Source: Gammaproteobacteria bacterium
GTDB lineage: Bacteria; Pseudomonadota; Gammaproteobacteria; DSM-19610
DNA: 64,000 bases
Assembly (NCBI GenBank): GCA_015494295.1
Contig: WGBO01000011.1
Location: 19,036 to 83,035 of the forward strand
Direction: 5' to 3'
This document shows, one piece after another, positions 50,055 through 54,156 of the stretch (position 1 is its first letter; every line of letters starts with the position of its first letter). The translations under genes were made by a program, and so were the position numbers. The notes beneath the pieces are model-generated. The model saw only the letters and a program-made list of their open reading frames with translations. It was not told the DNA's origin and made no database searches.

Positions 50055-51038
50055 TCACTGATCGATCCGATCAGGAATGATTTTCTTGACGATCTTGATG
50101 GCGCGGCTGCCGTTGTGAACGCCGAAACGGCCGCGGAAAATCGGGGTCTGCTCCGCCTCCAGTGTCACCAGTTCCGGCAGGTCGACGGGAATGACATCGC
50201 CGGCCTGAAGCTCGTTCAGCTCGCGCAGGGACAGAGTCGTTTCCAGCAGCGTGGACGTCAATTCGACCTTTGCTTCCTTCATCTCTTCGCGGATGGCGCG
50301 CGTCCAGCGTTCGTCGCAGTCGGAACGGTCACTCTGCACGCCGGCGTCCAACAGGTCGCGGATCGGTTCTACCATCGAGTAGGGCATGGTCACGTGCATG
50401 TCACCGCCACCACCGTCCAGCTCGACACGGAAGGTATTCACCACCACCACCTCGGTGGGACTGACGATATTGGCGAAGTGCGGATTGACCTCCGAGCCCT
50501 GGTACTCGAAAGCCACTTCCAGCACCGGTTTCCAGGCCTGCATCAGATCCTCGAAGGCGATTTCCAGCACCATGTTGATGACCCGCAGTTCCGTGGGGGT
50601 GAACTCGCGGCCCTCGATCTTGGTGTGGAAACGGCCGCCGCCGCCAAAGAAGTTGTCCACCAGCGCGAACACCAGCTTGGGTTCGAGCACGAACAGGGCC
50701 GTGCCACGCAAGGGCTTCACCCGGACCAGGTTGAGGCTGGTCGGCACGAACAGGCTGTGCACATACTCGGCGAACTTGAGCATCTGCACACCCGATACCG
50801 AAATCTCGCCGGCGCGGCGCAACATGTTGAACAGACTGATACGGAAATAACGCGCGAAACGCTCGTTGATCATCTCCAGCGTCGGCATGCGACCGCGAAC
50901 GATGCGATCCTGGCTGGCGAAGTCGTAACCGCGGATCTCGCCTTCCGGAACCTCGTCGTCGGTCTCGGTCTCGACATCGCCGCCGGATACACCGTGCAGC
51001 AGCGCGTCGATTTCGTCCTGTGAGAGAAGATCGTTCAC
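50055..51038 (-). CDS. fliM: FliM
   Basis: LLSQDEIDALL, RMPTLEMINERFAR. Confidence 0.96.
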   Translation of the reverse strand: MNDLLSQDEIDALLHGVSGGDVETETDDEVPEGEIRGYDFASQDRIVRGRMPTLEMINERFARYFRISLFNMLRRAGEISVSGVQMLKFAEYVHSLFVPTSLNLVRVKPLRGTALFVLEPKLVFALVDNFFGGGGRFHTKIEGREFTPTELRVINMVLEIAFEDLMQAWKPVLEVAFEYQGSEVNPHFANIVSPTEVVVVNTFRVELDGGGGDMHVTMPYSMVEPIRDLLDAGVQSDRSDCDERWTRAIREEMKEAKVELTSTLLETTLSLRELNELQAGDVIPVDLPELVTLEAEQTPIFRGRFGVHNGSRAIKIVKKIIPDRIDQ

Positions 51039-51048
51039 CGAAGCACCC

Positions 51049-51606
51049 TTACTGCATCACGAAGCTGGTGAAATACACGGCCTCGACACCGGGGTCGCCG
51101 GTTTCCGCCTTCAACACTTCCTGCACCGCGGCCAGGGTATCCTGGCGCAGTTTTTCCATGCCTTCGCGGGTATCGAGCTGAACCGGGTCCTGCGCTTTCA
51201 GCAGGAACACCAGGTTGTTGCGGATGGCCGGACGATGCTCCTTGATCTGCTCGACCATGGCCGGGTCGCGGGTTCCGACTTCCACGGTCACCTGCAGGAA
51301 TCGCACGTCGGTATCGCCACTGAAGTTGACCACGAAAGGCGGATCCAGCGGCACGTAGGCCAGCGGTGCCTTCGGTTCCTTGGCCTTCTTGCCCTTCTTC
51401 GCCTTCTTGTCGGCCTTGCCGGCGGTTTCCTCCGCCACCACCTCGTCATCACCGCCGATCACGCCGGTCAGCACCAGTGTCGCGGCCGCCGATACGCCCA
51501 GCAGCAACACCACTGCCACGATGATAATGATCATTTTCTTGGAGCCCGATTTTGCTGCGGCCCCGCCGCCTTCTACATCGAGATCCAGATCGTCTTCCTT
51601 TGCCAT
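51049..51606 (-). CDS. fliL: FliL
   Basis: TM helix, YVPLDPPFVVNF, VYFTSFVMQ. Confidence 0.93.
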   Translation of the reverse strand: MAKEDDLDLDVEGGGAAAKSGSKKMIIIIVAVVLLLGVSAAATLVLTGVIGGDDEVVAEETAGKADKKAKKGKKAKEPKAPLAYVPLDPPFVVNFSGDTDVRFLQVTVEVGTRDPAMVEQIKEHRPAIRNNLVFLLKAQDPVQLDTREGMEKLRQDTLAAVQEVLKAETGDPGVEAVYFTSFVMQ

Positions 51607-51640
51607 GTGTGCATCCCCTTGATACGTTCAAGCAGAGGGG

Positions 51641-51657
51641 TAGCAAGACATATGCCA
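51641..51657 (-). promoter_or_regulatory. sigma54 promoter for fliL operon
   Basis: Minus strand TGGCAT-ATGTC-TTGCTA. Confidence 0.85.
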
Positions 51658-51671
51658 CGGTCTGGAAGAAA

Positions 51672-51698
51672 AATAAAAGCTTTTATTACAGCGAGTTA
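51672..51698. promoter_or_regulatory. AT-rich palindrome and IHF-like site upstream of the fliL sigma54 promoter
   Basis: AATAAAAGCTTTTATT perfect palindrome (51672-51687); TTACAG-CGAG-TTA (51686-51698) fits relaxed WWWCAR-N4-TTR. Confidence 0.5.
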
Positions 51699-51717
51699 GA
51701 GAATCTGTTTTCAGGTG

Positions 51718-51732
51718 CGCCGAAGTTTTGAC
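51718..51732. promoter_or_regulatory. Candidate FleQ-type upstream activator site
   Basis: CGCCG-AAGTT-TTGAC; same CGCCG-N5-TTGAC pattern recurs at 63412-63426. Confidence 0.5.
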
Positions 51733-51784
51733 TCAATCCCGGCGATATGGCCGCCGAAACCTTGGCTGGAGGACGGAAAAGGGA

Positions 51785-54049
51785 TCAGTGCGCGGAACTC
51801 AGCAACCACTCGCGGAAACCGGCGTCCGGCAGCGGTTTGCTGATGTGGAAACCCTGCACCAGGTCGCAGCCCAGTTGCCGGAGCTGCTCGCGCACGCCCT
51901 GTGCCTCGACACCCTCGGCGATCACCTTGCAGTCGAGGTTGTGACCCAGCTCGATGATGGAACGCACGATGGCCGCGTCGCGCGGGTCGTTGGCCATGTC
52001 CTGCAGGAAGGACTGGTCGATTTTCAGCGTGTTGATGGGCAGACGCTTGAGATAGGACAGCGAGGAGTAACCGGTGCCGAAATCGTCGATGGCGATGGAC
52101 ACCCCGAGCTCGCTCAACTCGTCGAGAATTCGGGCGCCCAGTTCGAGGTCGGACATCAGGGTATCCTCGGTAATTTCCACCTCCAGCAGCGACCCCTCGA
52201 CGCCAGCCTTGTCCAGAGCCTGACGGATACGGGAGATGAGGCCCGGCGACTGGAAGGAGCGCGCCGAGACATTGACCGAGATCGCCACCGGCCGTCCGTC
52301 GACCTTCCAGTGACGGCTGTGTTCCAGGGCGGTATCCAGCACCCAGTCGGTAATCGGCGAAATCATGCCGAGCTGTTCGGCCACGGCAATGAATCGTTTC
52401 GGCAACACCAGCCCCTGCTGTGGATGCTGCCAGCGCAACAAGGCCTCGGCGCCGCAGATACGGCCGCTGCTGAGGTCGATCTTGGGCTGGTAGTGCAGCT
52501 CGAATTCCTCGCGCTCCAGGGCGCCGTGGAGCTGCCCGGAGAACTGAAGATGTTCGCTCGCCGACACCTCGGTCTCGGTCTCGAAGAACAGGAACGGGGC
52601 GGAATTCCACTTGGCCCGGTACATGGCGCTGTCCGCGTGACTGGCCAGGGTATGTGAATCCTCTCCGTGCTGCGGGAACACCGCGATACCGATGGCGCTG
52701 CTCAGGCACAGTTCGCGCCCCTTGAAGGTGAACGGCGCGCTCAGCGAGTTCATCACCTCGCGCGCGACGCGCTCCGCGGCCTTCTCCGCGTCCTGCACCA
52801 TCGGCAACACGATGCCGAACTCGTCACCGCCAAGCCGCGCCAGGGTGTCGGTGTCGCGCAGCACCTTCTGCACCCGCCCGGCGATCATCCTCAGCAACTG
52901 GTCCCCGGCTTCGTGGCCCAGGGTGTCGTTGTACATCTTGAACTGGTTGATATCCAGCACCATGACCGCCACCGAGGCGCCCGGGTTGCGGCGCGCCACC
53001 GCCAGCGCCGAGGCCAGCCGGTCGTACCACAGGGTGCGGTTGGCGAGGCCGGTCACTTCGTCCTGGGTGGAAAGCTGCTCCAGGCGTTCGCGGTCGGAGT
53101 GCAACTCGGTCACGTCCTCCATGAGGCAGTGCACGCGCAACACGCGGCCGCGCCGGTTGGCCGTGGGATAGAAGGCGAGCCGGTACCACCGGGCGCTGTC
53201 GTCCTCGCCACTGACCGGGATCTCCAGTTGCACCGCCGCGCCGTCGATAACCTGCTGCCAGGCCGTCAGCACGCGCTCGCGCTCGGAACCGGGAATGCGG
53301 TAGAAACAGGGAATAGGGGCTTCGAGGGTGTCCCCACAGAAGGCCTGGGTGCCGGGGCTGGCATAGGCGATGCGGTTGGCCTCGATATCCACCGTCCACA
53401 GGAGTTGTGGAATGCTGCCCAGCAGTTCTCCGGCCAGGTCCTGCTCGTGGCCGAGTTCGTCGCGCTGGTCGGTGAGCTGCTCCACCGCGGCACGCCAGTA
53501 ACCCTCGCTGGTAATCGCCATGTCGCGGAATACGACCTTGATGAGGGCGCGTTCCAGCGCATCACGATCGTGGTGATCGATATCCGCCTCGCCGGCGATC
53601 AGTTCCTTGATATGGTCCACGAACAAGCGGTAGGCGCCCAGCGACCAGACCGGCTTGATGCCCCAGCGGTAATGCTCGCGCCCGACCTGCTCGCTGGCCG
53701 CTGCCGCCTTCTCGTCGATGTCGCCGTTCAGGAGTCCGAGCTGGTGTTCGAGTTGCGAGCGCACCAGCTCGCCGATATTGCCGCCCTGGCGCTCGTAGGC
53801 GTACAGAACATCGGCGATGTCCGGGTTGTCGAACATGTAGTTGTAGATCTTTTCGGCGAAACCCGCCGCGCCCTGCGCGAGGATGTCCTGGTACCGTTTG
53901 AGCACCAGCGCGTCTTCCTCGCTGAGATGGAGGACGTAATTGAATTCCTTTCCGAGAATCGGGTGGGAGGATTTCCTGCGTATCCCTCCCCGTGTCTCCT
54001 TCGGTTTTTTGCGCTTGTTCGTGGGCGTTGGCATTGCCAATTCCAGCAT
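51785..54049 (-). CDS. Globin-coupled sensor with PAS-like, GGDEF and EAL domains
   Basis: Sensor globin (IY B10 Tyr, GREHYRWG proximal His); GGDEF with RxxD I-site (RDTDTLARLGGDEF); EAL, EITE, DDFGTGYSSL, KID, EGVE, QG motifs. Confidence 0.9.
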   Translation of the reverse strand: MLELAMPTPTNKRKKPKETRGGIRRKSSHPILGKEFNYVLHLSEEDALVLKRYQDILAQGAAGFAEKIYNYMFDNPDIADVLYAYERQGGNIGELVRSQLEHQLGLLNGDIDEKAAAASEQVGREHYRWGIKPVWSLGAYRLFVDHIKELIAGEADIDHHDRDALERALIKVVFRDMAITSEGYWRAAVEQLTDQRDELGHEQDLAGELLGSIPQLLWTVDIEANRIAYASPGTQAFCGDTLEAPIPCFYRIPGSERERVLTAWQQVIDGAAVQLEIPVSGEDDSARWYRLAFYPTANRRGRVLRVHCLMEDVTELHSDRERLEQLSTQDEVTGLANRTLWYDRLASALAVARRNPGASVAVMVLDINQFKMYNDTLGHEAGDQLLRMIAGRVQKVLRDTDTLARLGGDEFGIVLPMVQDAEKAAERVAREVMNSLSAPFTFKGRELCLSSAIGIAVFPQHGEDSHTLASHADSAMYRAKWNSAPFLFFETETEVSASEHLQFSGQLHGALEREEFELHYQPKIDLSSGRICGAEALLRWQHPQQGLVLPKRFIAVAEQLGMISPITDWVLDTALEHSRHWKVDGRPVAISVNVSARSFQSPGLISRIRQALDKAGVEGSLLEVEITEDTLMSDLELGARILDELSELGVSIAIDDFGTGYSSLSYLKRLPINTLKIDQSFLQDMANDPRDAAIVRSIIELGHNLDCKVIAEGVEAQGVREQLRQLGCDLVQGFHISKPLPDAGFREWLLSSAH

Positions 54050-54056
54050 TGTTATA

Positions 54057-54069
54057 GTTGTACTACAAC
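54057..54069. promoter_or_regulatory. Palindrome GTTGTA-C-TACAAC just upstream of the globin sensor
   Basis: Perfect 6-1-6 inverted repeat 7 nt from the first ATG. Confidence 0.35.
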
Positions 54070-54156
54070 GCTATCACAGCCAAAGGGCAAGTACAATCAG
54101 CCTGTTAGGAAAAGAACCGGGATTTGTGGAGGAAATTTTCCGTTACCGGCCGCCGT

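Follow-up and report, generated by a model that had tools for sequence, protein, structure and literature searches.

Here, we analysed a 64,000-nt stretch of the forward strand of a gammaproteobacterial genome (assembly GCA_015494295.1, contig WGBO01000011.1, positions 19,036 to 83,035; hereafter the window) and focused on a gene between fliK and fliL in its flagellar gene cluster. The gene codes for a protein in which a sensor globin is followed by a PAS, a GGDEF and an EAL domain, an order already given by the initial annotation and confirmed by our Pfam scan. Judging from synteny and phylogeny, this globin-sensor gene is an insertion relative to the ancestral fliK-fliL junction that is old and has been inherited vertically together with the cluster. 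We propose that its product probably acts as a phosphodiesterase/cyclase for the second messenger cyclic di-GMP (c-di-GMP) that responds to oxygen or another gas and feeds into the regulator FleQ and a YcgR-like motor brake. Rather than being an isolated insertion, the gene seems to represent an old connection of gas sensing to swimming that has so far gone unstudied.

Domains, motifs and predicted fold

The minus-strand open reading frame (ORF) 51785..54049 is real and encodes 754 amino acids. Since its orthologues, mostly 749 amino acids long in the protein database, begin at a conserved 'MP(T/G/A)...' methionine, which opens the reading frame in every related locus, the true start is most likely Met6 of the ORF. 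This ATG at 54034 yields a gene at 51785..54034 (-) for a protein of 749 amino acids, whose numbering is used for residues unless the 754-aa ORF is named. No hydrophobic segment was found (maximum Kyte-Doolittle 19-residue mean 1.2), hence the protein should be cytoplasmic; the earlier description as a cytoplasmic 754-aa ORF thus holds with the start moved to residue 6. Ten of the first 30 residues are Lys or Arg, and this basic tail is kept in most orthologues. The gene and its parts are as follows.

51785..54034, minus strand: globin-sensor gene, 749-aa Protoglobin-PAS-GGDEF-EAL protein (ORF open up to 54049)
53963..54034, minus strand: N-terminal basic tail, residues 1-24, MPTPTNKRKKPKETRGGIRRKSSH, predicted to be disordered (AlphaFold2 model)
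53489..53935, minus strand: sensor-globin (Protoglobin) domain, residues 34-182 (Pfam, HemAT alignment, AlphaFold2 and Foldseek)
53843-53845, minus strand: Tyr64, position B10 (alignment to HemAT)
53672-53674, minus strand: His121, position F8 (alignment to HemAT)
53099..53416, minus strand: PAS domain, residues 207-312, with conserved IPQxLW, PIPC and W259 (Pfam PAS_4, AlphaFold2 model)
52607..53068, minus strand: GGDEF domain, residues 323-476 (Pfam)
52847-52858, minus strand: RxxD I-site, RDTD (motif)
52817-52831, minus strand: GGDEF motif (motif)
51833..52534, minus strand: EAL domain, residues 501-734 (Pfam)

In the numbering of the 754-aa ORF, Pfam placed Protoglobin at 39-187, PAS_4 at 212-317, GGDEF at 328-481 and EAL at 506-739. 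Protoglobin (PF11563) scored 68 bits against a cut-off of 25 and was matched by 25/25 aligned orthologues; PAS_4 scored 31 bits against 23.1 and was matched by 21/25. The GGDEF (PF00990) and EAL (PF00563) domains reached 154 and 260 bits, respectively. No cofactor ligand is evident in the PAS domain.

A HMMER alignment to HemAT-Bs (1OR4) brought Tyr64, within EKIYNY, onto Tyr70 (B10) and His121, within GREHYRWG, onto His123 (F8); His121 also aligns with the histidine of a second globin-GGDEF protein encoded in the genome. The cyclase site reads RDTD-TLARL-GGDEF (residues 393-406) and places the I-site at the canonical distance of five residues upstream of GGDEF. In the EAL domain, the catalytic and metal-binding set is complete, comprising EALLR, N588, EVEITE, DDFGTGYSS (loop 6), KID, EGVE and QG. 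The B10 tyrosine, proximal histidine, GGDEF, RxxD and full set of EAL motifs, all read from the sequence in the initial annotation, were therefore found again by alignment to HemAT and inspection of the motifs.

For residues 1-205, an AlphaFold2 model based on 17 orthologues reached a mean predicted local distance difference test score (pLDDT) of 86, with the Lys/Arg-rich residues 1-24 disordered. Its top Foldseek matches in the PDB were HemAT, AfGcHK, GsGCS from Geobacter, BpeGReg and DosC, with TM-scores relative to the target of 0.75-0.89. All top-30 structural neighbours were haem-binding sensor globins or protoglobins; non-haem globins of the RsbR type did not occur in the top 50. In a full-length model (pLDDT 85), a long helix (residues 154-206) joins the globin to a PAS fold of two strands, helices and three strands (residues 211-307), from which a second helix leads into GGDEF. 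The best solved matches of the GGDEF-EAL tandem were 5m3c, MorA (4rnh) and DosP. NCBIfam matches to c-di-GMP enzymes cover the GGDEF-EAL part alone, and no equivalog cut-off was reached (DibA, PRK10060, DosP, HmsP and others), the best being DibA with 432 bits versus 980.

An old insertion in the flagellar cluster

The host cluster is a polar flagellar cluster of the Pseudomonas/Vibrio type. Its genes run in the order fleQ (3' end at the window edge), fleS, fleR, fliEFGHIJK, globin-sensor gene, fliLMNOPQR, flhBA, flhF, fleN, fliA, cheYZAB, motAB, a parA-like gene, two cheW and a DUF2802 gene. The direct neighbours and their promoter motifs are listed here.

54157..55425, minus strand: fliK (hook-length control), directly upstream (Pfam Flg_hook)
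51049..51606, minus strand: fliL, directly downstream
55469..55484, minus strand: sigma54 -24/-12 motif TGGCACGACCATTGCT, 59 nt before the fliK start
51642..51657, minus strand: sigma54 -24/-12 motif TGGCATATGTCTTGCT, 51 nt before the fliL start

Pfam assignments of the neighbours and the motif positions thus agree with the earlier statement that the gene sits between fliK and the sigma54 promoter of fliL. The motifs of fliK and fliL are kept in every related locus examined, that of fliL in the genus and in three other families.

The nearest named homologue, with 86% identity, is from Thiogranum longum. Among genomes of the same genus, 21/24 contain full-length orthologues (74-92% identity) and two more hold fragments at contig ends; in the fetched same-genus loci, fliK, the gene and fliL follow each other in 11/11 cases wherever the flanks reach. 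Within the genus, the globin-sensor protein is 75-92% identical, compared to 60-81% for FliL and 39-49% for FliK. From these alignments, we conclude that the protein is under purifying selection.

To look beyond the genus, we surveyed 401 genomes of the class with the globin and PAS part alone as query. The class is called Gammaproteobacteria after the source names of homologues, and family labels (f1 etc.) are anonymous. Orthologues of approximately 725-768 amino acids were found in about 19 genomes from about 12 families. For synteny, the flanks of each orthologue (about 8 kb per side) were taken and the flagellar proteins of the window mapped onto them, which revealed the following arrangements.

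fliJ-fliK-gene-fliL-fliM: f1 (second genus), f188, f200, f176 and f118; metagenome contigs L013, L014 and L149-L151
fleQ-gene-fleN-fliA: f212 and L015
beside fleQ-like and fliG-like genes: f139
with unrelated housekeeping genes as neighbours: six genomes (f32, f44, f169, f214) and a Spongiibacteraceae metagenome-assembled genome (MAG)

Flagellated members of the class without the gene have the fliK C-terminus directly upstream of fliL in at least 7/14 cases, in line with the adjacency that the initial annotation took as its baseline, and none of these 14 carries an EAL gene at the fliK-fliL junction. A maximum-likelihood tree of the protein agrees with a tree of FliM, FliI and FliG from the same loci at every supported node, with branches about three times longer for the globin-sensor protein. 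The gene was indeed inserted, as had been suggested, but not recently or locally: the slot is common to at least five families, the trees are congruent and gene-less relatives have fliK beside fliL, which together argue for an old insertion with vertical inheritance. The proposed flagellar link is strengthened by the same slot and tree data as well as by the other lineages, in which the gene lies beside fleQ, fleN and fliA. We also considered the fleQ-gene-fleN-fliA arrangement as a constant mark of flagellum loss. This was only partly true, as G390 is without flhA while G235 has flhA on another contig.

The globin-sensor family is small: its globin and PAS module matches 32 of 1.84 billion cluster representatives at 50% identity (E <= 1e-30). 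A search of genome contigs with the family alignment, for which patterns from the cores of GGDEF and EAL were chosen, recovered little other than generic GGDEF-EAL genes, and a globin was present only in L066 (the Spongiibacteraceae MAG) and L090 (Gallionella).

Observations against the proposal and other explanations

Several observations weigh against an oxygen-responsive enzyme dedicated to the flagellum. They concern the haem ligand, the cyclase site, the promoter and the location of the gene in part of its family, and are set out here together with the explanations that would account for them. The first two emerge from motif counts in 138 orthologues.

EALxR: 138/138
EGVE: 137/138
RxxD: 137/138
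Tyr B10: 137/138
F8 His: 110/138 (80%); otherwise L 9, R 7, N 6, Y 5, M 1
canonical GGDEF: 88/138 (64%); otherwise GGDQF 19, GSDEF 16, DGD[DE]F 9 and rarer forms

The proximal histidine is absent from 28/138 orthologues, and about 17 of these also have no histidine one position further on. The His-less proteins P0034 (GRAYFELG), P0072 and P0079 are intact and still encoded between fliK and fliL. As His-less orthologues remain, some of them in this very slot, haem ligation appears not to be required for the family to persist. Could the N-terminal domain then be a non-haem globin, which binds another ligand or a partner protein or serves dimerisation, while the phosphodiesterase answers to some other cue, possibly via PAS? 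We regard this as unlikely. It would explain why 20% of the orthologues do without the F8 histidine (L, R, N, Y or M instead), including close relatives at 74-77% identity and loci of the fliK-fliL type, and why Tyr B10 and the rest of the domain are kept in these proteins, a pattern that hints at some constraint besides iron ligation. There are, moreover, orthologues that weakly match the Pfam family RsbRD_N of non-haem globins. However, both His F8 and Tyr B10 are retained in the protein analysed here and in 12/12 same-genus loci examined, its top-30 structural neighbours all bind haem as described above, and many His-less variants carry a histidine one residue later. The haem gas sensor put forward by the initial annotation is therefore plausible for this protein, but 28 orthologues do not have the F8 histidine.

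The GGDEF motif is degenerate in 50/138 orthologues (36%). Within the genus, it is canonical in all examined loci but L012 (GSDEF), and RxxD and EAL are, like His and Tyr, kept in 12/12. Since EAL is invariant while GGDEF is degenerate in more than a third of the family, the motifs point to hydrolysis of c-di-GMP, along with a conserved I-site for nucleotide binding, as the function that is kept family-wide. Neither cyclase activity nor haem ligation of the classical kind seems to be obligatory across the family; both sites are intact in this genome. The setting of c-di-GMP named in the initial annotation, if taken to run in both directions, is thus not what the family has conserved. For the protein of the window itself, bifunctionality is nevertheless probable, because the GGDEF cyclase site and the RxxD product-binding site are intact along with EAL.

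The same counts bear on a further explanation, according to which the protein is catalytically silent: like FimX, LapD or TipF, it would serve as a receptor or scaffold that binds c-di-GMP at its I-site or EAL site and brings in flagellar or polar proteins, perhaps via the basic tail. RxxD stays practically invariant even where GGDEF is degenerate, the disordered basic tail is conserved, and the more distant hits in the PDB and NCBIfam include FimX and LapD. Receptors of the FimX/LapD type have, however, lost the EAL catalytic motifs, whereas the catalytic and metal-binding motifs and the DFGTGYSS loop 6 are kept in essentially all orthologues of the globin-sensor protein. Its best PDB matches (5m3c, MorA and DosP) are, moreover, active enzymes. 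We hence consider a silent receptor highly improbable.

Turning to expression, none of 16 loci has a sigma54 motif upstream of the globin-sensor gene, unlike its neighbours, and visual inspection of the spacer in the window revealed no obvious sigma28 motif. Membership in the flagellar regulon is accordingly only putative. Scanning 50900-56100 gave no terminator-like site on the strand of the gene, the 122-nt spacer between fliK and the gene included, and nothing useful for sigma70. The spacer does contain a conserved block, which became apparent from an alignment of 15 same-genus loci.

54051..54107, minus strand: conserved upstream block in the fliK-gene spacer
54092-54107, minus strand: part TAACAGGCTGATTGTA
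54070-54079, minus strand: part CTGTGATAGC
54051-54061, minus strand: part ACAACTATAAC, containing a TATAAC -10-like hexamer

In these 15 loci, the consensus reads TAACAGAYTGATTGTA ... CTGTGNTAAC ... ACAAYTATAAC, while the remaining spacer is variable; the block lies in the window and in the equivalent spacer of loci L002-L012 and L063-L065. More distant families have a partial counterpart, GGTAACGTACC ... ACAACAATAAGAA, an A/C-rich ARN-like run ahead of the start codon. Inspection of the block by eye yielded no convincing box for sigma28, FNR, CRP or FleQ. We read it as a putative promoter or operator. The possibility of an RNA element, known or stably folded, was rejected, as there was no Rfam match in 51400-55600 and folding of the spacer gave z = -1.0. 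Co-transcription from the sigma54 promoter of fliK, which the initial annotation regarded as possible, stays a conjecture: the gene has no such motif of its own, but a separate conserved element precedes it.

The orthologue lies far from flagellar genes in 7/20 sampled genomes or MAGs, of which 6/6 tested have kept flhA elsewhere. Where the gene is part of the cluster, the organisation differs in some relatives.

G019: 2.7-kb insertion between gene and fliL (L063:7152-9859)
G023: 1.2-kb insertion between gene and fliL (L065:4361-5470)
L149: 660-nt gap between gene and fliL
G008 (L064): cluster split; fliL...flhA relocated to a site about 0.7 Mb distant

The insert of G019 encodes a 470-aa protein with a signal peptide and that of G023 an unrelated secreted protein of 253 amino acids; at the split in G008, a PAS-GGDEF gene follows 1.5 kb away. 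The ORFs of both inserts and the ORF adjacent to the gene in G008 belong to no Pfam family and are mutually unrelated. The rearrangements that we saw are all confined to the interval between the gene and fliL, and none separates fliK from the gene. The gene-fliL spacer is thus a hot spot for change, and the fact that all rearrangements lie on the fliL side favours, without proving it, a functional or transcriptional tie of the gene to fliK.

Is the location then a historical accident, i.e. is the protein a general oxygen-responsive c-di-GMP enzyme whose gene happens to occupy a tolerated, inherited insertion site? The conserved upstream element of its own and the missing sigma54 motif would fit, as would the unrelated insertions taken up by the neighbouring spacer, the orthologues among housekeeping genes in 7/20 sampled genomes or MAGs and the more than 25 GGDEF/EAL loci that the genome holds. 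Against this stand the retention of the slot across at least five families with co-phylogeny, the second, independent arrangement with the flagellar regulator genes fleQ, fleN and fliA and the finding that the protein is more conserved than FliK or FliL. We therefore deem an accident improbable.

Proposed mechanism and candidate partners

In the oxygen- or gas-responsive enzyme that we favour, a diatomic gas, most likely oxygen (or NO/CO), would bind to a haem iron held by His121 and be stabilised by Tyr64. The signal would run down helix 154-206 and through PAS to the GGDEF-EAL tandem, where it would shift the balance between synthesis and breakdown of c-di-GMP. By analogy with DcpG and DosP, oxygen may favour phosphodiesterase activity. 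The resulting c-di-GMP level would act on the FleQ protein of the cluster and on a single PilZN-PilZ protein, and an oxygen-bound shift to hydrolysis would relieve the inhibition that c-di-GMP exerts on FleQ and on the YcgR-type brake. In an organism related to Thiogranum, oxygen might thereby be coupled to the expression of flagellar genes and to the output of the motor. Members of Thiogranum are sulfur oxidisers living at oxic-sulfidic interfaces.

Candidates for the downstream components are encoded in the genome. FleQ of the cluster (L146:449-1981, -, just past the right edge of the window) carries the motifs DLFRS, KEVVARN and EHEKR, which correspond to all three c-di-GMP-binding motifs of Pseudomonas FleQ, namely LFR144S, R185/N186 and ExxxR334 (PMC9303241, PMC10333796). 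Among 12 PilZ matches in the genome, none of which is on the contig of the window, exactly one gene is of the PilZN-PilZ (YcgR/FlgZ) type, and its product is a candidate motor brake. The genome also encodes a second Protoglobin protein, a cyclase with a GGEEF motif, which could form a DosC/DosP-like pair with the globin-sensor protein.

G000:C44:10694-11338 (L148), plus strand: PilZN-PilZ gene, outside the flagellar cluster
G000:C15, L147:1438-2505, plus strand: second Protoglobin gene, 355-aa globin-GGEEF cyclase with Tyr B10 and His F8

A bolder proposal, which we put forward tentatively and regard as rather doubtful, is that the family belongs to the gene set of the polar flagellum as an accessory component dedicated to it. 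It would have co-evolved with this set since before several families of the class diverged and would link oxygen or redox state to FleQ-controlled flagellar expression and to braking of the motor. The His-less orthologues and the lineages with fleQ, fleN and fliA only would then point to a second role of the globin, e.g. binding of a flagellar regulator. If true, this second role would explain the lasting linkage of the gene to regulators.

Comparison with known systems

The best functional analogy is DcpG from Paenibacillus dendritiformis, a dual diguanylate cyclase/phosphodiesterase described as globin, GGDEF and EAL without mention of PAS, in which oxygen favours the phosphodiesterase and NO or CO the cyclase activity (PMC10882959, PMC10118264). 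The 'same four-domain order' attributed to DcpG in the initial annotation would therefore hold for globin, GGDEF and EAL, but is unconfirmed for PAS, which these descriptions do not mention (PMC10882959, PMC10118264). What both proteins share is a sensor globin ahead of GGDEF and EAL in one chain; compared by description only, they differ in the apparently extra PAS domain between globin and GGDEF in our protein and in the origin of DcpG from a Firmicute. DcpG is not known to be encoded in a flagellar cluster.

Haem-based oxygen control of both synthesis and breakdown of c-di-GMP is also found in DosC/DosP (DgcO/PdeO) of E. coli. The GGDEF-EAL region of DosP matches residues 315-751 of the 754-aa ORF with 216 bits, and the DosC globin is a structural neighbour of the globin domain. 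DosP, however, senses via a haem-PAS domain instead of a globin, and DosC and DosP are two proteins encoded in one operon unrelated to flagella. HemAT-Bs, AfGcHK, GsGCS and BpeGReg share the sensor-globin fold and align at Tyr B10 and His F8, but their outputs are signalling by a methyl-accepting chemotaxis protein, a histidine kinase or a cyclase alone, and none is of the PAS-GGDEF-EAL type. HemAT mediates aerotaxis and thus has a motility output.

With regard to the enzymatic part, the 'motility regulator' MorA of Pseudomonas and 5m3c are the closest GGDEF-EAL tandems of known structure (E 1e-110 to 1e-117). MorA influences flagellar development and is membrane-anchored with PAS sensors; unlike our protein, it is not known to contain a globin or to be encoded within the flagellar cluster. 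In E. coli and Salmonella, PdeH (YhjH) is a c-di-GMP phosphodiesterase of the flagellar regulon that keeps the YcgR brake off. The globin-sensor protein would follow the same logic of a phosphodiesterase releasing this brake, whereas PdeH is a stand-alone EAL protein without sensor, depends on FliA and is not encoded between fliK and fliL.

A full-text literature search for a globin-coupled or EAL enzyme in a flagellar cluster or between fliK and fliL gave no description of the family. The novelty lies in the PAS-containing architecture and the conserved flagellar position; the components and their logic have precedents in DcpG, DosC/DosP and PdeH. Outside model organisms, little is understood of how flagellated bacteria at oxic-sulfidic interfaces couple oxygen to the choice between swimming and settling. 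A sensor-enzyme that is tied to the flagellar cluster in both its location and its evolution offers a concrete, testable node, which would lead from a sensor globin via c-di-GMP to FleQ and YcgR. The natural variants, i.e. the His-less globins and the GGDQF, GSDEF and DGDEF sites, should be useful to dissect how a globin controls two opposing activities.

Other genes of the cluster

Two minor observations were made on flagellar genes upstream of fliK. The longest ORF of fliH overlaps the 3' end of fliG by approximately 140 nt (57357-58118 and 57979-58989, both on the minus strand), and the real fliH start is probably further downstream than that of the longest ORF. In related assemblies, fliI is apparently split into two frames (L151:570-1417 and L052:13205-14528), either by a frameshift or by an assembly error.

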